Below are positions 921 through 49,687 of a stretch of 64,000 nucleotides of DNA, one piece after another. The DNA is from Lachnospiraceae bacterium. GTDB taxonomy: Bacteria; Bacillota; Clostridia; Lachnospirales; Anaerotignaceae. The notes under the pieces were generated by a model. It made no database searches and was not told the origin of the DNA. It worked only from the letters and a program-made list of their open reading frames with translations. The translations under genes were made by a program, and so were the position numbers. Where the stretch lies: positions 48,150 through 112,149 of the forward strand of contig CAVGZD010000001.1 in NCBI GenBank assembly GCA_963633805.1, written 5' to 3'. Numbering within the stretch: the stretch's first letter is position 1; the number at the start of each line of letters is the position of its first letter.

Positions 921-1028
921 CGAGTTAATTCAGACTCATTGAGTCGAATGTGAATCAATTCGGTAAATTCAGCTAAATTTGAATCAATTCTATCAATATT
1001 CCATTTCGAACGAGTTTATTTTGACTCA
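921..1028 (+). promoter_or_regulatory. Four palindromic upstream activator sites (consensus TGAGTY-N6-GAMTCA) for a sigma54 enhancer-binding protein
   Basis: CGAGTT-N6-GACTCA 921-938, TGAGTC-N6-GAATCA 940-957, TCAGCT-N6-GAATCA 969-986 (degenerate), CGAGTT-N6-GACTCA 1011-1028; all upstream of the -24/-12 element. Confidence 0.7.
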
Positions 1029-1080
1029 ATCAGCTTACGAAAAAATCCCAAAATAGTCGTTTTTCTGCATTTTTTCCATT

Positions 1081-1096
1081 TGGCACGCTTCTTGCT
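1081..1096 (+). promoter_or_regulatory. Sigma54 (SigL/RpoN) -24/-12 promoter
   Basis: TGGCACG-CTTC-TTGCT matches the TGGCACG-N4-TTGCW consensus; bEBP gene nearby. Confidence 0.92.
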
Positions 1097-1149
1097 CTAT
1101 TGATAGACAGAAAACAAAAAGTGATGCAAATTGGAAAGGAGCATGATTT

Positions 1150-2346
1150 ATGAAACCGTTAACAGGAGTGAAGGTAGTCGATTTTACACAGGCGCATGCG
1201 GGCAGTCTGTGCACGATGCTGCTGGCAGACTTCGGCGCGGAGGTCATCAAAATTGAAAGACCCGGCGTGGGCGACCTTGCGAGATATTGGTCTCCCTTTA
1301 AGAATGGTTCCAGCGGCTACTATGCCTATCTGAACAGAGGGAAAAAGAGCATCGGCGTCAACGGTGGCACGGAGGAGGGCAGAAAAATTCTGCTGGATTT
1401 GATCAAGGATGCGGATGTGGTCACGGAAAACTTCAAATACGGCAGCATGGAGCGCATGGGCTTGAGCTATGAAAAAATCAAGGAGGTTAATCCCGAAATC
1501 ATCTATGCGTCCCTGAACGGCTACGGGCAGACAGGTCCGATGAAGCAGACCATCGGTCTGGATCTGCAGCTGCAGGCGGGCAGCGGGCTGATGGATCGTA
1601 CCGGCTTCCCGGACGGCGCACCCACGAAGGCAGGTCCGGCAATGGGCGACCAGCTGAGCGGCACCTACATGGCGACCGCCATCATACTGGCTCTGATCGC
1701 AAAAAAGAAAACGGGCAAGGGGCAGAAGATCGACATTGCGATTCTGGATTGCCTGTTTTCCATTCTGGAGGCAGCGCCGATTACATACTGTATGACGGGT
1801 AGCGTGCCTGAGAGAGTCGGCAACGCATACCCCTCCATTTCCCCTTACGATACCTTCAAGGCGAAGGACGGCTATGTTGCCATCGGTATTTCCACGGACA
1901 ATCAGTGGAAGAAATTCTGCGATGCGCTGGGCATGGACGATCTGAAGGCGGACGAGAGATATATGACGAATGAATCCCGCGGGGAGCATTATGAAAGCGG
2001 GCTGAAGCAGGCGATTGAAAAGGTGACCGGCACGATGTCCAAGTTTGAGATCGAAGAAAAGCTGCGGGCTGCCCGTCTGGCATGCGGCGCGGTCTACACC
2101 GTATCCGAAGCGATGGAAACGGAGCAGATCAAGGTCAGAAATATGCTGACAAAGGTTTACGATGAGGGCATCGGCGAGGAAATTCGCATTCCCGGCACGG
2201 TTATCAAAATGAGCGAGACGCCCGGCGGCTTCACCGAGGGCGCACCCAATCTGGGCAAGCACACCCGCTATTATCTGGAAAAGCTAGGCTATACAGAGGA
2301 CGAAATCAAGGCTCTGGCAGAGAAGAAAATCATCGAGATGGCATAA
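1150..2346 (+). CDS. Class III CoA-transferase (CaiB/BaiF family), first paralog
   Basis: PL.GVKVVDFT...AG..C...LADFGAEVIKIERPG.GD, LNRGKKS, ADVVTENF, probable catalytic Asp in AMGDQLSG. Confidence 0.95.
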   Translation: MKPLTGVKVVDFTQAHAGSLCTMLLADFGAEVIKIERPGVGDLARYWSPFKNGSSGYYAYLNRGKKSIGVNGGTEEGRKILLDLIKDADVVTENFKYGSMERMGLSYEKIKEVNPEIIYASLNGYGQTGPMKQTIGLDLQLQAGSGLMDRTGFPDGAPTKAGPAMGDQLSGTYMATAIILALIAKKKTGKGQKIDIAILDCLFSILEAAPITYCMTGSVPERVGNAYPSISPYDTFKAKDGYVAIGISTDNQWKKFCDALGMDDLKADERYMTNESRGEHYESGLKQAIEKVTGTMSKFEIEEKLRAARLACGAVYTVSEAMETEQIKVRNMLTKVYDEGIGEEIRIPGTVIKMSETPGGFTEGAPNLGKHTRYYLEKLGYTEDEIKALAEKKIIEMA

Positions 2347-2361
2347 GAAAGGAGATTTGAC

Positions 2362-3552
2362 ATGAAGGTTCTAGAAGGCGTTACGGTAATCGACTTTACA
2401 CAGGCATACAGCGGCCCTTTCTGTACCATGCAGCTGGCGGACTTCGGCGCAAGGGTCATCAAAATTGAAAGACGGGGCGTGGGCGATCAGTCCAGAGAAT
2501 GGACGCCCATCAATGAAAAGGGCCAAAGCGGCTATTATGCGGCAATCAACAGAGGGAAGGAAAGCGTTTCCCTTGACATCAATACACCGGAGGGCGCGGA
2601 GATCATCAAAAAAATGGTGAAGGATGCAGATATTGTGGTGGAAAACTTCAAGGTCGGCACGCTGGATAAGATGGGGCTGGGCTACGAGGAGCTGAAAAAG
2701 GTCAATCCGGAGATCATCTATGCATCCATCTCCGGCTACGGGCAGAATGGCCCTTGGAGCAGCCTTGCGGCATATGACAACGTAATTCAGGCGATGTGCG
2801 GCATGATGGAAATGACGGGCTTCGCGGATGATGTTCCGACGAAGGTTGGCCCGGCGATCGGGGACAACTTCACAGGTCTGACGATGGCGCTGGCGATCAC
2901 GATGGCTTACTACAATAAGCTGCAGACAGGCAAGGGTCAGCATCTGGATGTTGCCATGATGGACTGCCTGTTCGGCATTATGGAAAGTCCGATTATGTAT
3001 AAGGAGCTACTGAATGAGGAAATCACGCGCTGCGGCAACACAGACCCGACGCTGTTTCCCTATGACGTTTACCCCTGCAAGGACGGATATTTCTCCGTGG
3101 GCGTTGCGGCAGGCTCCTCCGCAGAATGGGAAAGATTCTGCAAGGCGATCGGGATGCCGGAGCTGCTGCAGGAGGAAAAATACAGCACAAATGAAGGGCG
3201 CGTTGCACTTTATGATGAGCTGACCCCCAAAATCCTGCCCTTCTTTGCTGCAAAAACAAAGGCAGAGCTGACCGAGGCATTCGCAGAAAGCAAGCTGCCC
3301 TGCTCGCCCGTTAATACCATTCCCGAGCTGATGCATCATCCGCAGCTGGAGGCAAGGGGTATGCTGATCCCGCTGGAGGATGAGGGCGTTGGGCATTACA
3401 CCGCAATGGGCAACCCCATGCTGCTGAGCGAAACGCCCGCCGTGATCGAAAAGGGCGCACCCGCGATGGGCAGGGATACCGATAAGGTGCTGAAGGAATT
3501 TGGCTTCAGCGGTGAACAGATCAAGACATTTTATGCAAATGAAATTGTATAA
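2362..3552 (+). CDS. Class III CoA-transferase (CaiB/BaiF family), second paralog
   Basis: LEGVTVIDFTQAYSGPFCT..LADFGARVIKIE, INRGKES, AAYD..IQA, probable catalytic Asp in AIGDNFTG. Confidence 0.95.
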   Translation: MKVLEGVTVIDFTQAYSGPFCTMQLADFGARVIKIERRGVGDQSREWTPINEKGQSGYYAAINRGKESVSLDINTPEGAEIIKKMVKDADIVVENFKVGTLDKMGLGYEELKKVNPEIIYASISGYGQNGPWSSLAAYDNVIQAMCGMMEMTGFADDVPTKVGPAIGDNFTGLTMALAITMAYYNKLQTGKGQHLDVAMMDCLFGIMESPIMYKELLNEEITRCGNTDPTLFPYDVYPCKDGYFSVGVAAGSSAEWERFCKAIGMPELLQEEKYSTNEGRVALYDELTPKILPFFAAKTKAELTEAFAESKLPCSPVNTIPELMHHPQLEARGMLIPLEDEGVGHYTAMGNPMLLSETPAVIEKGAPAMGRDTDKVLKEFGFSGEQIKTFYANEIV

Positions 3553-3674
3553 AATCCGCATTTCCTTTACGATAGAGAAAATATGAAGAATCTATGGCAT
3601 TCGCGCGGAGGACGCAGCTTCTACGCGGATACCATATCCATAGGAAGAAATTTTTGGAAGAAGGAGGAAAACGA

Positions 3675-5270
3675 ATGGATAAGAAGCCGTTATCTGAAAA
3701 ATATGAGGTTGGCTTGATGATCGCGAGCCTGTGTATCGTTGCCGTTATGGTAATCGGGCTTACGGTTTTTCCGGAGCAGGGGGTTGCGCTTTCGCATAAA
3801 ATCATGAATCTGCTGACGCATAGCTTTGGCTCTGTGATGCAGCTGATTGCGCTGGGTATTCTGCTTTTCCTGATCGTGCTTGCCCTCTCGAAATATGGGG
3901 ACATCCGCTTGGGAAAGGAAAAGCCAGAGTATTCTAATATGTCTTGGGTGGCGATGATGTTTTTCTGCGGCAATGGCGCAGGTACGGTATATTGGGCATT
4001 TCTGGAATGGGGCTATCATTTTAATGCTGCGCCGCAGCTGAACGGAGCAGAGATCAGCGAAGCATATAATTATGAGCAGTCTTTGGCATATTGCTTCTAC
4101 GACTGGGGACCGATTGCGTGGGCGATGCTCTGCGTATTCGTTCTGCCCTTTGCCTACCATTATTACATTAAAAAGGACAAGGAGCTGCGCTTTTCTCAGC
4201 TCTGCAAATATACCGTCGGGGAGAAGGCAGTGAAGGGCGTCTTTGGCAAGGTTGTGGATTTCCTGTTTATTTTCTCTGCGATTGGCTCTGTTGCGATCAC
4301 CGCGGGTACATCCGGTTCTACCATCGCCGCTACCATCTCCGATCTGATCGGTATCCCCAATTCCTTTGGGCTGACTGTCAGCGTGCTGCTGGGCGTGACC
4401 ATCATCTATACGCTGACATCCATGTCCGGTGCGGCAAAGGGGATGAAAAAGATTTCCGATGCAAATGTGTATGCCTGCTGTGCGTTGCTGCTGTTCATTT
4501 TCATCGTTGGGCCGACAAGATTTATCTGGGATGGCATCGTAAACGCTCTGGGCATGATGGCGACGAATTTCGTGCGCATGACGACTTGGACAGACCCCGT
4601 TGCGGCGACCGGCTATCCGCAGACCTGGACGGTATTTTATCTGATTTACTGGTTCGTATTTGGTCCGTTTACGGGTCTGTTTGTCGCAAAAATCTCCAGA
4701 GGCAGAAAAATCAAGGAGATCATTGCAAATATGCTGCTCTCCGGTTCTGCAGGGCTGATTTTCTTCTTCGGCATCATGGGCGGCTATCAGATGGATCTGC
4801 GCATCAGGGGCATTCTGGATATTCCTTATATGCTGGCAAATGGCTTATCCGAAAATATCGCGCTGGCAACGATGCATACCCTGCCCTTCAGCAAAATCGC
4901 GATGTGCGTTTATCTGTTTGTGATCGTGCTGTTTTTGGCAACAACGATGGACGCCATCACCCAGACGCTTTCCACCACCATTGCGAAGCATCTGGATGAA
5001 AAGGGCGAAGCGCCTAAGCCGCTGAAATTTGCATGGTGCCTGATTCTGTGCGCATTGCCCATCGCGATTTACTTTATCGGTACGGATATCGATACCATCA
5101 AATCCATCGTGCTGCTCTCCGGCTTCCCTCTGGTTATCCTCCTGTTTATCATCTACTACGGCTTACTGCGCGAGATGAAGAAGGATTTCGGCGGAAAGAC
5201 GAAGAAAGAGATTCTGCGGGAAGGAGCGGCGTTGCCTGCGGGAGAAGAAGCGGCGGATTCCCCCTCCTGA
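3675..5270 (+). CDS. BCCT-family (betaine/carnitine/choline) transporter
   Basis: SKYGDIRLG, SWVAMMF, DWG...W, WTVFY...GPF.GLFVAKISRGR; many hydrophobic segments; start moved to ATG 3675 behind AGGAGG. Confidence 0.93.
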   Translation: MDKKPLSEKYEVGLMIASLCIVAVMVIGLTVFPEQGVALSHKIMNLLTHSFGSVMQLIALGILLFLIVLALSKYGDIRLGKEKPEYSNMSWVAMMFFCGNGAGTVYWAFLEWGYHFNAAPQLNGAEISEAYNYEQSLAYCFYDWGPIAWAMLCVFVLPFAYHYYIKKDKELRFSQLCKYTVGEKAVKGVFGKVVDFLFIFSAIGSVAITAGTSGSTIAATISDLIGIPNSFGLTVSVLLGVTIIYTLTSMSGAAKGMKKISDANVYACCALLLFIFIVGPTRFIWDGIVNALGMMATNFVRMTTWTDPVAATGYPQTWTVFYLIYWFVFGPFTGLFVAKISRGRKIKEIIANMLLSGSAGLIFFFGIMGGYQMDLRIRGILDIPYMLANGLSENIALATMHTLPFSKIAMCVYLFVIVLFLATTMDAITQTLSTTIAKHLDEKGEAPKPLKFAWCLILCALPIAIYFIGTDIDTIKSIVLLSGFPLVILLFIIYYGLLREMKKDFGGKTKKEILREGAALPAGEEAADSPS

Positions 5271-5290
5271 TGCAGATGCATTGATTTTGT

Positions 5291-5342
5291 AAAATATCCA
5301 TGTGGCGCGCTGTACTTTATGCCATGTGGATATTTTATTTTT
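5291..5342 (+). terminator. Probable terminator of the CoA-transferase/BCCT operon
   Basis: AAAATATCCATGTGGC / GCCATGTGGATATTTT imperfect inverted repeat followed by a T-rich tract. Confidence 0.6.
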
Positions 5343-5393
5343 GCCCAAAAGCGTGTATGATAAAGGAAAACGGCGGCAGAAGGAGATGGGAAA

Positions 5394-6761
5394 ATGCTGT
5401 TAAAGGATGCGCTGAATTTCGAACAATTCCTGAAAATGATGGATCAATGCTATGATGAGCTGTGTATTTGGGATAAAAACGGGAAGATTCTCTATATCAA
5501 TGACCCTTGCTATCGGCATTACGGTCTGCGCCCGGAGGGCTTTCTCGGAAAAACCCTGCAGGAATGCACGGAGAACGAAAAGCTCTGGTCGCCAAGCTGC
5601 GTATCGATGACCTTTGACGAAAAAAGACCCATGATCCAGAAGCAGAAGACCTTTCTGGGGATCGATATTGTGACGATCTCCGTGCCGATCATGGATGAGC
5701 ATGGCGAGGTGGAGTATGTGCTGCAGAGCGTGCGGGATGGGGATGATACGCTCTATAAGGTGCTGTCCTCGCAGATGCTGCAGGAGGGCAGGGAAGAGGA
5801 AAACGAAACGAAAATCATCTACAAAAGCGCGGCGATGGGCGAAACCCTGCATATGGCAGATAAAATCGCAAAATCGAAAGCCACCGTCCTGATTTTGGGT
5901 GAAACGGGAACGGGCAAAAGCCTTTTGGCAAAATATATCCATGAGCACAGCGACCGAAGGGACAAGCCCTTCCTTAGCATCAACATCGCCAGCCTCAGCC
6001 CGTCCATCATCGAATCGGAGCTGTTCGGCTACAAGAAGGGGGCGTTTACCGGCGCGGAAAAGGGCGGGAGAATCGGACTTTTTGAAGCTGCAAACGGCGG
6101 GACGCTCTTTTTGGATGAGATTGGCGAATTGCCCTACGATCTGCAGGCGAAGTTTCTGCACGTTTTGCAGGAGGAAACCGTGATGCCCGTCGGCTCGCAT
6201 ACGCCGATCAAGCTGGATATCCGCGTGCTTTGTGCGACAAACTGCGATCTGCAGAAGATGATCGAAGCGGGAAAGTTCCGCGAGGATTTATATCACCGTA
6301 TCAATATATTTGATATGCTGATGCCGCCGCTGCGCAAACGGCGGGAGGACATCGAGCCGCTGGCTGTGTATTTCCTGAATTTTTTCAATACGAAATATGA
6401 GCGGAATGTGGAAATTTCGCAGCGCGTGATGGAGTTGCTCAAGCGATACCCTTGGAAAGGGAATATCCGGGAATTGTCCAATGTCATAGAAAGAGGAGTG
6501 CTGACGGCGGAGGAACACACGATCGAGATCAGCAATCTGCCGGAGAGCTTTTTCCATGTGGAGAATGAAAAGAAGGTGGGCTGTGCCGTGCTGGAGCAAA
6601 ATCTCTCCTTTGATGAAGCAGTCGAGGAATATGAAAAAAAGGTGATCCAAGAGGCGTATGCGAAATACGGAAGCAGCCGCAGGGTCGCGGAGCAGCTGAA
6701 AATGAGCCAGTCCAAGGCGAATCGGCTGATACAGAAATATGTGACGCATCGTGAAAAATAG
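5394..6761 (+). CDS. Sigma54-dependent enhancer-binding protein (PAS - AAA+ - HTH)
   Basis: GETGTGKS, ESELFG, GAFTGA, LFLDEIGE, FREDLYHR, WKGNIREL; N-terminal PAS-like region, C-terminal TyrR-type HTH. Confidence 0.95.
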   Translation: MLLKDALNFEQFLKMMDQCYDELCIWDKNGKILYINDPCYRHYGLRPEGFLGKTLQECTENEKLWSPSCVSMTFDEKRPMIQKQKTFLGIDIVTISVPIMDEHGEVEYVLQSVRDGDDTLYKVLSSQMLQEGREEENETKIIYKSAAMGETLHMADKIAKSKATVLILGETGTGKSLLAKYIHEHSDRRDKPFLSINIASLSPSIIESELFGYKKGAFTGAEKGGRIGLFEAANGGTLFLDEIGELPYDLQAKFLHVLQEETVMPVGSHTPIKLDIRVLCATNCDLQKMIEAGKFREDLYHRINIFDMLMPPLRKRREDIEPLAVYFLNFFNTKYERNVEISQRVMELLKRYPWKGNIRELSNVIERGVLTAEEHTIEISNLPESFFHVENEKKVGCAVLEQNLSFDEAVEEYEKKVIQEAYAKYGSSRRVAEQLKMSQSKANRLIQKYVTHREK

Positions 6762-6897
6762 TGTGGCGGTCGATGTGTTTTTATCAGGAAAGTGTTGCAG
6801 ATGCAGCGCTTTCCTATTTTATTGGCTGCAAAATTCCGCCAAGAAAGCCGGACAAGGCGCGGCGCATAGAATGAGAAAAAGGAAGGAGTTGAGGTAG

Positions 6898-48100: not shown

Positions 48101-49687
48101 TTGAAACGAAAAATAGGAATTTTGCTTGCACTGGCTTTTGCGCTGGCAATGCCGCTGCAGGCGATGGCATATACAGTCCCGGAGACGGTGCGCGTGGGCT
48201 TGGAGTCGGTCTGCAAGAATGCTGCTTCCGCGAGCATCGGTGCGGGCGAGGTCTTGATCGGCACGGAGAAAAGCGGACGCTTTGAGGAGGGCGGCGCGAC
48301 TTCCTCGGATGCGGGCTTCACCGTCCGTGCGGCAAGTGGCTCTTATATCGCGATGGATGAGGAAATGAGCTGCCGGGAAGCATTGCGCACGGCAGAGGAG
48401 CTTTCCGATGCGGGTCTGGATGCCTATGCGGCTTATCTGGGCGGGGAGGACTGGACGGTTTACACGGCAAATTCCTCTGTGGAGGAAGTGGAGCGGCAGA
48501 TAGGTGCGTCCGCATCCCGCGTGAGCAGCTTCACGGGCTATCAGCTTTCGGGCGAGGATGCCTTGCTTGTGCCGCAGGACGCGGTATTGATGGGGACGGG
48601 CAAGGAGGATACCATCAATCTGAACGGCAAGCGTTATCGCGGCATGCTGACCTTCGCAGTCGCGGGGAACAGCCTGACGGCAATCAATATCATCGGTCTG
48701 GAGGAATATCTCTATGGCGTTGTGCCTGCGGAAATGCCGCAGACCTATGAGAGGGAGGCGCTGAAGGCACAGGCAGTCGCCGCCCGTACCTACGCCATGA
48801 CGAAACTGGGCGCACATACGGGCAGCGGCTATCAGCTCTGCGATACGACGGCTTGTCAGGTTTATAACGGCTACAGCGGCGAAGCGGCTTCTGCGACCTC
48901 TGCCGTGGATGCAACGGCGGGGGAGATCGCCTGCTACAACGGTCAGCCGATCGAAGCGGTATTTTCTGCGTCCTCCGGTGGCTATACGGAAAATAGCGAG
49001 AATGTTTGGAGCAATGTCGTGCCTTATCTGCGGGCTGTACCGGAAATTGCGGAATACGGGGATAATACTTGGACGAGAACGCTGACTCTCTCCGAGCTGG
49101 ACGCGCTTCTCGCCAAAAAGGGCGAAAATATCGGCAGTGCGGAGGATATCGTGATTACGAAGCTCTCCGGCAGCGGGCGCGTGCAGGAATTGCAGATCAT
49201 CGGCTCGAAGGGCAAAAAAACGCTGACGAAGGAAGAGATTCGGACGTATTTTTCGGCGGCATGCGGCAGTCTGCCGGGGAAGATGTTTACTATAAACGGC
49301 AAGGGCGGCGATATTGGCACATACGGCGATACCACATCCGCGCGGCAGACACAGACCGCGACGGCGGGGACGCTGCTTGCGGCGGCGCAGAAAAACGGTA
49401 TCCGCGCAAGGACGGAGGGCGATTTATCCGCGATGAACGGCAGAATGCTGGAGATCGACTTGGCGCAGGGGACAGGCAAAACGACGGTTTCCACCAATTC
49501 TACGGGCAGTGTGATTTCCTCCGTGTCTATCAGCACGATCAGCGGAAATAAATTCGTGTTCGAGGGCATCGGCATCGGGCATGGCGTGGGCTTGAGCCAG
49601 AACGGCGCACAGGCGATGGCACAGCGCGGCTATGACTACGAGGAAATTCTGCATCATTATTACACCGATATTACGATCGAGGGCTAG
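48101..49687 (+). CDS. SpoIID/LytB-domain peptidoglycan lytic transglycosylase
   Basis: Signal peptide; LEEYLYGVVPAEM, EALKAQAVAART, CQVY, GHGVGLSQ.GA, IL.HYY; TTG start. Confidence 0.92.
   Translation: MKRKIGILLALAFALAMPLQAMAYTVPETVRVGLESVCKNAASASIGAGEVLIGTEKSGRFEEGGATSSDAGFTVRAASGSYIAMDEEMSCREALRTAEELSDAGLDAYAAYLGGEDWTVYTANSSVEEVERQIGASASRVSSFTGYQLSGEDALLVPQDAVLMGTGKEDTINLNGKRYRGMLTFAVAGNSLTAINIIGLEEYLYGVVPAEMPQTYEREALKAQAVAARTYAMTKLGAHTGSGYQLCDTTACQVYNGYSGEAASATSAVDATAGEIACYNGQPIEAVFSASSGGYTENSENVWSNVVPYLRAVPEIAEYGDNTWTRTLTLSELDALLAKKGENIGSAEDIVITKLSGSGRVQELQIIGSKGKKTLTKEEIRTYFSAACGSLPGKMFTINGKGGDIGTYGDTTSARQTQTATAGTLLAAAQKNGIRARTEGDLSAMNGRMLEIDLAQGTGKTTVSTNSTGSVISSVSISTISGNKFVFEGIGIGHGVGLSQNGAQAMAQRGYDYEEILHHYYTDITIEG

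Follow-up and report, generated by a model that had tools for sequence, protein, structure and literature searches.

A conserved sigma54-dependent CoA-transferase and BCCT transporter operon of Clostridia that may degrade 3-onium-propionates without a separate lyase

We analyzed a 64,000-nucleotide stretch of DNA from a Lachnospiraceae bacterium (positions 48,150 to 112,149 of CAVGZD010000001.1, which is contig C1 of the 2.23-Mb, 89.75% complete GenBank assembly GCA_963633805.1), called here in its entirety the window. At positions 921-6761, three palindromes and a sigma54 promoter precede tandem genes for two class III CoA-transferase subunits, CT1 and CT2, and a gene for a BCCT-family transporter, followed by a 19-bp hairpin and a gene for a PAS-domain sigma54 activator. 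This unit is real and conserved, and most likely imports, and activates with CoA, a propionate carrying a leaving group at C3. We tentatively favor the explanation that it is a substrate-inducible catabolic operon for a 3-onium-propionate, of the beta-alanine betaine (trimethylammonio-propionate) or dimethylsulfoniopropionate (DMSP) type, that needs no outside lyase. As such it would work like DddD/DddX or Act-Acl, and by the tests we ran it is no member of Act-Acl and probably none of DddD/DddX. A preliminary description, made from the letters of the window, had listed a promoter, a CaiB-family pair, a BCCT transporter, a terminator and a GAFTGA-containing activator, all of which are where it placed them, and was right that the locus has no gene for a lyase or a dehydrogenase. 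Its view that the module is catabolic and uncharacterized was borne out, as by identity and tree the proteins are neither bbu nor cai orthologs. We found no description of the operon in the literature searched, which lay mostly outside subscription journals.

The host is an Anaerotignum, and the nearest named record to CT1 is an Anaerotignum sp. protein (98% identity). A scan of a genome collection returned 58 loci, and the 27 with CT1 at ≥64% identity (L023-L049) formed our ortholog set. CT2 directly follows CT1 in all 27. The BCCT gene comes next in 23; three of the others stop at contig edges and one has a sodium:solute symporter gene instead. An activator gene is nearby in 17 loci, and an Acl-like lyase gene is linked to the unit in none of the 27. 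Directly downstream, four loci have an acyl-CoA dehydrogenase gene together with etf genes, and the upstream flanks hold a thiolase gene in two loci and hbd in one. The unit-adjoining dehydrogenases cluster with those of Acl-linked clusters, and the one in genome M8S5 is a second copy, separate from the one that follows a crotonase gene. According to record titles, carriers belong to Anaerotignaceae, Anaerovoracaceae, Oscillospiraceae, Acutalibacteraceae, Wukongibacter and Dethiosulfatibacter, the last two of which are of marine origin. Cultured carriers include Anaerotignum sp. MB30-C6, Chakrabartyella piscis BP5G and Dethiosulfatibacter aminovorans DSM 17477. The distribution is patchy: in the genus of MB30-C6, 5 of 15 genomes have the module, and among Anaerovoracaceae it occurs, at ≥64%, in 4 of 251. 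Chakrabartyella piscis, which comes from a seaweed-eating fish (PMC11333855), has four CT-CT-BCCT copies. A tblastn search of plasmids gave generic matches only (≤41% among the matches listed).

The unit has the parts of a sigma54-activated operon: a -24/-12 site, activator sites upstream of it, a GAFTGA activator and, on host contig C6, rpoN. The -24/-12 site is the sole match in the window, and 7 of 100 shuffles gave one. Such a site lies 5′ of CT1 in 25 of the 27 upstream regions (window plus 26 orthologous loci), and one of the two regions without it is truncated by its contig. Half-sites of a new motif, the predicted activator-binding site, number 55 in these 27 regions compared to a mean of 8.3 and a maximum of 16 in 100 shuffles, and the full palindrome TGAGTY-N6-RACTCA occurs in 23 of 24 upstream regions. 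In the window alone, with one mismatch allowed, the four palindrome matches are at chance level (3.65 expected); the weight of the palindrome therefore comes from clustering and conservation and not from the window count alone. In the host assembly, this promoter scored 21.5 and 20.1 and the next best site 13.7, with a matrix partly trained on these sites. Since a high score was found at this promoter only, the host regulon appears, from the motif scan, to consist of this operon alone. The preliminary description had proposed, as one option, that the regulon includes a needed enzyme encoded elsewhere; the scan does not support this, as no activator site lies at acl, the unlinked host gene for a beta-alanyl-CoA ammonia-lyase. 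Strict sigma54 sites number 12 in MB30-C6 and 21 in M8S5, and one of them carries the activator motif. That site drives an enolase-family gene, a BCCT gene and two UxaA/SAF-like genes, and a second activator gene adjoins.

CT1 and CT2, which are 45% identical, match PF02515 over their full length and have an aspartate at the column of D169 in Frc and CaiB, and thus belong to class III. By tblastn they are the only class III transferases in the host assembly, which encodes one BCCT protein and two GAFTGA activators. None of the unit proteins reached an NCBIfam equivalog cut-off. Matches of CT1 and CT2 to solved structures scored 240-265 bits for Frc-type enzymes, 100-160 for BbsE/F and 105-128 for CaiB. 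The closest characterized enzyme is Act of the beta-alanine pathway (10 sequences; 44-47% identical to CT1 and 41-46% to CT2), which the preliminary description did not name among its comparators; we identified Act by eye, comparing single transferases that adjoin acl with the act start that supplement file 3 of PMC13067684 gives for A. propionicum. Act is a single gene beside acl with a clade of its own, whereas CT1 and CT2 fall in separate clades and have no acl at any of the 27 loci.

Both a 158-row FastTree and a 45-row IQ-TREE quick tree, with rows picked to represent clades, place CT1 and CT2 in two mirror clades. Each is joined by the matching subunit of pairs that lie beside genes for Acl/Kal-like hotdog lyases (Shimodaira-Hasegawa-like approximate likelihood ratio test in the IQ-TREE quick tree, 97 on the CT2 side and 90 on the CT1 side); deeper branching, including that of Bbu and Act, lacks resolution in both trees. 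Natural two-subunit fusions of 799-853 amino acids are 50-51% identical to CT2, and one has an Acl-like gene upstream. Because of the mirror clades, the fixed gene order and these fusions, CT1 and CT2 likely form a heterodimer, as had been hinted at from the sequence of the pair.

Both proteins keep the catalytic Asp: the counterparts of D169 in E. coli Frc and CaiB are D167 in CT1 and D168 in CT2. The Asp of the GLD/AYD motif to which the preliminary description pointed is a different residue, and the Leu of the CT1 GLD stands at the position of Frc Y139. The catalytic Asp is present in 26 of 26 orthologs of each subunit. Pairs of the lyase-linked or fused clade have it in 6 of 15 first subunits and in all 15 second subunits. 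Conversely, in three of four clusters that contain a beta-keto acid cleavage enzyme, the second subunit lacks both the Asp and the CoA-binding motifs and the CT1-type subunit keeps them; in these clusters the CoA ester would arrive ready-made. As each site is live in some relatives and both Asp are kept, both sites look live in this unit. On one reading CT2 would transfer and CT1 would eliminate; on another, the two would be transfer sites of different taste.

The best solved match of the transporter is Psychrobacter DddT (322 bits, compared to 197 for CaiT and 168 for BetP). Among the DddT residues named in section 10 of PMC13270143, W140, W321, W105, Y112, W313, F316, Y317 and G101 are identical, and W320, Y324 and S204 are changed to Tyr, Phe and Thr. 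All four positions of the cation box (W140, W320, W321 and Y324 in DddT) are aromatic (W/Y/W/F), the carboxylate contacts S204 and G101 correspond to Thr and Gly, and the five entry residues are identical to those of DddT. A His neighboring the box is Asp in most of this BCCT clade, and D143 lies beside W144 here. Similarity in sequence does not settle which compound is carried (PMC13270143, section 14). The onium substrate suggested in the preliminary description is compatible with a DddT-like carrier that has a cation box; the substrate itself is still putative.

The host has lcd-pct (C89) and two intact acyl-CoA dehydrogenase-etfB pairs (C18 and C28), both at contig ends; the labels lcd and pct, like MerR-like and rubredoxin below, are presumptive ones. 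From lcd-pct, we infer that the host reduces acrylyl-CoA. In its assembly we found no crotonase over cut-off, thiolase, Hbd, 4-hydroxybutyryl-CoA dehydratase, cleavage enzyme, MttB or ApbA-like reductase. Since crotonase, thiolase and MttB were not found and the acrylate pathway is present, a C3 enoyl-CoA would be usable at once; the acrylyl-CoA outcome raised earlier therefore fits this host. Genes of the C18 type follow acl-act in one genome and this module in Anaerovorax, and are found, at ≥66%, in 18 of 27 carriers compared to 24 of 251 Anaerovoracaceae genomes. Two further candidates for a partner enzyme were rejected: lactoyl-CoA dehydratase, present at ≥70% in only 11 of 27 carriers, and a frameshifted, divergent acyl-CoA dehydrogenase that lies in pieces across frames at C38:19241-20500 and has close relatives in 2 of the 57 genomes searched, one of them a carrier. 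The host also encodes a 790-residue glycyl radical enzyme with its activating enzyme (C2:10672-14343), whose best NCBIfam model is CutC at 725 bits, below the cut-off of 1050, which leaves the enzyme unassigned. A search for glycine reductase came up empty, as it also did for its control.

In the explanation that we tentatively favor, the PAS activator would sense the compound or its product, bind the three palindromes and fire the sigma54 promoter. The BCCT carrier would import the zwitterion, and the CT1-CT2 heterodimer would move CoA from propionyl- or acetyl-CoA onto it. Trimethylamine (TMA) or dimethyl sulfide (DMS) would then be lost from the thioester, spontaneously or at the second active site (CT1 D167), to yield acrylyl-CoA, which the host acyl-CoA dehydrogenase/ETF would reduce to propionyl-CoA, renewing the CoA donor. 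The more specific proposal of a two-site transferase-lyase, in which beta-alanine betaine or DMSP receives CoA at the CT2 site and loses TMA or DMS at the CT1 site, is doubtful. Relatives would handle beta-amino acids through a separate amine lyase, which this lineage may have lost while gaining a transporter with a cation box. Such a loss would be expected provided that quaternary ammonium and sulfonium groups leave easily. DddX converts DMSP-CoA to acrylyl-CoA with a catalytic base (PMC8163506), and degradation of DMSP by a Clostridium was described by Wagner and Stadtman in 1962 (as cited in PMC4815253). Nothing in the literature searched joins alanine betaine with acrylate. This explanation is consistent with Act as nearest relative, with sister clades that lie beside lyase genes and a BCCT-linked lineage that has none at 27 of 27 loci, and with the retention of both Asp in 26 of 26 orthologs, compared to a first-subunit Asp in 6 of 15 members of the lyase-linked or fused clade. 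The aromatic box of the DddT-like carrier, the dehydrogenase and etf genes downstream at 4 of 27 loci and the four copies in a fish isolate point the same way.

Other observations weigh against it. By name, many carriers are metagenome-assembled genomes (MAGs) from guts or digesters, and DMSP is no obvious food there; betaines of the candidate kind occur in the diet. An outside lyase is available, since 18 of 26 carrier genomes have an Acl-like gene at another locus, and a C4 or C5 chain fits as well, given the thiolase (two loci) and Hbd (one locus) that flank the unit. A sister CT-CT-BCCT module, mostly without a linked lyase, has Glu at the Asp column of the first subunit (3 of 3, plus three more), so a lyase-less unit does not need a live CT1 site. 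Nor is the His at the Q17 column a mark of a built-in lyase, since 14 of 15 lyase-linked first subunits have it too. The host dehydrogenases scored 452 and 531 against a cut-off of 640 for the NCBIfam acryloyl-CoA reductase (AcrC), which one MB30-C6 gene passes. The C18 type also lies beside crotonase and thiolase elsewhere and is thus not diagnostic for acrylyl-CoA, and etfA was not found in the host assembly, at its 89.75% completeness. Finally, DddT W320, whose loss impairs transport, is Tyr in this carrier, and two DddT homologues that were tested did not carry DMSP (PMC13270143, section 14).

The presence of an outside lyase is central to an alternative that we consider rather unlikely, in which the pair is a transferase only, for beta-alanine or N-methylated or otherwise N-substituted beta-alanine, and the hotdog lyase Acl encoded on C36 removes the amine. 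Host acl (C36:10494-10952) was matched to acl2 by eye, from gene starts that supplement file 3 of PMC13067684 lists. It lies without an adjoining act in a genome whose sole class III transferases are CT1 and CT2, and six genomes of the same genus have acl-act. CT2 has Y16, Y138 and D168 as in Act; the box is smaller than that of DddT, and D143 could suit a protonated amine. However, although the Acl-like genes in those 18 carriers reach at least 52% identity, the match is only of Kal level (45-50%) in five of the 26 carriers, including two complete genomes, and three MAGs have none. Moreover, acl lacks an activator site, and one 99%-complete relative has acl and zero class III transferases. 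Since 15 of 15 genomes of a related genus have an Act-level gene and 5 of 15 have the module, the module is no simple replacement for Act. A longer onium acid, delta-valerobetaine or 3-trimethylammonio-butyrate, is an improbable substrate; an acyl-CoA dehydrogenase/ETF would desaturate its CoA ester or reduce the enoyl-CoA left after TMA loss. The dehydrogenase, thiolase and Hbd genes beside some units, and the second dehydrogenase copy in M8S5, would suit such a route, but crotonase, Hbd and thiolase were not detected in the incomplete host assembly, and the unit-adjoining dehydrogenases group with Acl-linked ones.

We give little credence to a plain CoA shuttle for betainyl- or carnitinyl-CoA, a role that the paralogs in cleavage-enzyme clusters, where carnitine would be converted to glycine betaine and acetoacetate, may have. 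CT1 is 49-63% identical to first subunits of cleavage-enzyme and enolase-family clusters, and the CT1-type subunit alone keeps the Asp in three of four of the former. The carrier encoded in those clusters is of another, CaiT-like kind (32-33% identical), though, and because the host lacks matches for the cleavage enzyme, ApbA-like reductase, crotonase and MttB, it has no known use for such esters. It is very unlikely that the unit belongs to a system already known, be it caiTB or a BbuB/C pair whose bbuA lies elsewhere, or that its transferase acts on a non-onium acid; bbu and cai identity is already largely refuted. The bbu system, as described in bioRxiv 2021.01.25.428109, has the same family pairing of two class III genes and a BCCT gene. 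Our reference was six loci (L114-L119) with the gene set given there: dehydrogenase, two transferases, ferredoxin, BCCT and, where the contig allows, thioesterase. Against these, the transferases are 32-39% and the BCCT proteins 30-32% identical, and the Bbu subunits fall outside the CT1 and CT2 clades. With a BbuA query from a cluster that has the published gene set, rather than the named E. timonensis record, none of 28 carrier genomes yielded a BbuA-type gene, and both controls did (best host match 31%). CT1 and CT2 are therefore not plain BbuB/C orthologs, a possibility for which the preliminary description had allowed. As lactoyl-CoA dehydratase occurs in so few carriers, a 2-hydroxy-acid route is not shared either.

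The unit resembles several known systems in design. Act-Acl of Anaerotignum (Clostridium) propionicum has a class III transferase of a neighboring clade (41-47%), comes from the same host group and shares with the unit the CT2/Act residues and acrylyl-CoA as a likely product, but the unit has two different subunits instead of one, no acl, and a BCCT gene and sigma54 activator where Act-Acl has a MerR-like neighbor. The two co-exist in most carriers checked. Like bbu, in which both BbuB/C subunits are needed, the unit has a tandem pair and a BCCT gene; it has no bbu-type ferredoxin or thioesterase gene, and at the column of the catalytic Asp of CT1, all 6 first subunits of Bbu have Glu. One bbu-architecture cluster (L117, G218:C29) has its transferases fused in a 793-residue open reading frame. 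With DddD/DddX and DddT, the unit would share CoA activation of an onium acid beside a BCCT carrier, and it has two CaiB-like units that are fused in some relatives. DddD yields 3-hydroxypropionyl-CoA, however, DddX is an ATP-dependent ligase, and the unit has no dddA/B/C-like genes. The best three longer CT2-like proteins are the CT1-CT2-like fusions, the other 117 listed are ≤40% identical, no match named DddD was among the matches listed, and NCBIfam scans returned no DddD model. A kinship with DddD, as in the split DddD-like enzyme of the preliminary description, is hypothetical. The cai operon, which also pairs the CaiB family with a BCCT carrier, was rejected on scores of 179 bits (cut-off 413) for NF002914 and 302 bits (cut-off 541) for NF002887, identities of 27-29% to CaiB and 25% to CaiT, the lack of CaiA and CaiD in the unit, and the lack of a crotonase over cut-off. 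BbsEF is likewise a two-subunit class III enzyme, but scores well below Frc-type structures, and both unit subunits keep the Asp.

The coordinates of the unit are listed in Table 1. The BCCT gene most likely starts at 3675 and not at 3594, judging from its putative ribosome site. The hairpin at 5289-5338 is absent from the list of a consensus terminator scanner. The unit is flanked by the rpsL-tuf operon on one side and, on the other, by a short gene at 430-612 that we take to be rubredoxin-like, which has its own strong terminator and lies outside the unit.

Table 1. Features of the unit, in window coordinates
Feature	Position	Strand	Remarks
Activator-binding palindrome 1 (predicted)	921..938		consensus TGAGTY-N6-RACTCA
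Activator-binding palindrome 2 (predicted)	940..957		one mismatch to consensus
Activator-binding palindrome 3 (predicted)	1011..1028		top-scoring site of assembly; matrix partly trained on these sites
sigma54 -24/-12 promoter	1081..1096	+	consensus match
CT1, class III CoA-transferase subunit, 398 aa	1150..2346	+	PF02515; H16, L137, catalytic-column D167
CT2, class III CoA-transferase subunit, 396 aa	2362..3552	+	PF02515; Y16, Y138, D168 as in Act
Predicted intergenic hairpin 5′ of transporter gene	3593..3636	+	lies between CT2 and BCCT genes
BCCT transporter, 531 aa, DddT/YeaV-like branch	3675..5270	+	PF02028; box W144, Y325, W326, F329
19-bp hairpin, T-rich tail, probable terminator	about 5289..5338	+	parts BCCT from activator
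PAS-AAA+-HTH sigma54 activator, 455 aa	5394..6761	+	PAS, Sigma54_activat, HTH domains; GAFTGA at residue 216
Terminator-like hairpin 3′ of activator	6786..6815	+	hairpin scan

Several other gene clusters share parts with the unit. Another sigma54 unit of the host (C10:24616-28018) consists of an activator gene and a gene of 427 codons whose product resembles cysteine desulfidase; it has no activator motif and was rejected as a partner. The activator motif of the operon recurs at a second kind of sigma54 unit (L183:11766-17799, at about 4336700-4342800 of G064:C1; also L228, L229 and L230), which encodes an activator, an enolase-superfamily protein (best solved match 3SJN, 590 bits), a YeaV-like BCCT carrier and, in three of the four loci, a SAF and UxaA-like dehydratase pair. 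It is perhaps a racemase and lyase route for a hydroxylated onium acid. The enolase-family gene was rejected as a partner, as close orthologs occur in 7 of 28 genomes and the host is not among them. The cleavage-enzyme clusters (L050, L052, L053 and L322) combine that enzyme with a CaiT-like BCCT carrier, an ApbA-like reductase and a pair of the CT1/CT2 type, with a degenerate second subunit in three of the four clusters. They possibly serve to cleave carnitine or homocarnitine anaerobically, with an unrecognized dehydrogenase as part of the pathway. A metagenome scan for more of them gave distant relatives only (33-49%; 80 loci).

The BCCT proteins of the sister module (L081, L085, L100, L113 and L323-L325) are 63-66% identical to that of the unit and the transferases only 39-46%; in G032, it lies tail to tail with a CT1-CT2 module. 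Three of the C. piscis modules are in tandem with their own activators (L185 and L239, G319:C1:253563-271300), one of them holding an enolase-family gene, and the fourth is elsewhere. At L054, L101 and L102-L112, sigma54-driven transferase pairs, one of them fused (844 amino acids), have divergent Acl/Kal-like hotdog genes for neighbors, along with transporter genes of the amino-acid or polyamine type and, in some cases, PatB-like and saccharopine-dehydrogenase-like genes. These pairs are candidates for N-substituted beta-alanines from polyamines. In L234 and L235, acl lies beside a BCCT gene from a different branch (30-31% identical), and in L234 the two are separated by an Act-like gene. This is a second link of beta-alanine-type chemistry to BCCT carriers. 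Host acl follows a cluster of sarcosine-oxidase-like, DapA-like and aldehyde dehydrogenase genes, and most acl genes of the genus adjoin act.

If the unit is indeed an operon for 3-onium-propionates, then a four-gene, single-promoter unit in at least 27 Clostridia species would release TMA or DMS and feed the acrylate pathway, one more anaerobic TMA- or DMS-forming route beside the few known. The old report that a Clostridium ferments DMSP could then be tested at gene level, and it would become apparent how work is shared between the two sites of class III heterodimers. As activator, motif and promoter are defined, the substrate should be findable by a simple reporter screen. Should the two-site proposal also hold, a clostridial onium-lyase would have arisen from amine-lyase-coupled transferases by loss of the separate lyase. 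The unit would then be a candidate gene set for the 1962 clostridial DMSP fermentation, whose strain was reportedly assigned to C. propionicum, and a gut source of TMA that screens for cutC, cntA and bbuA would miss.

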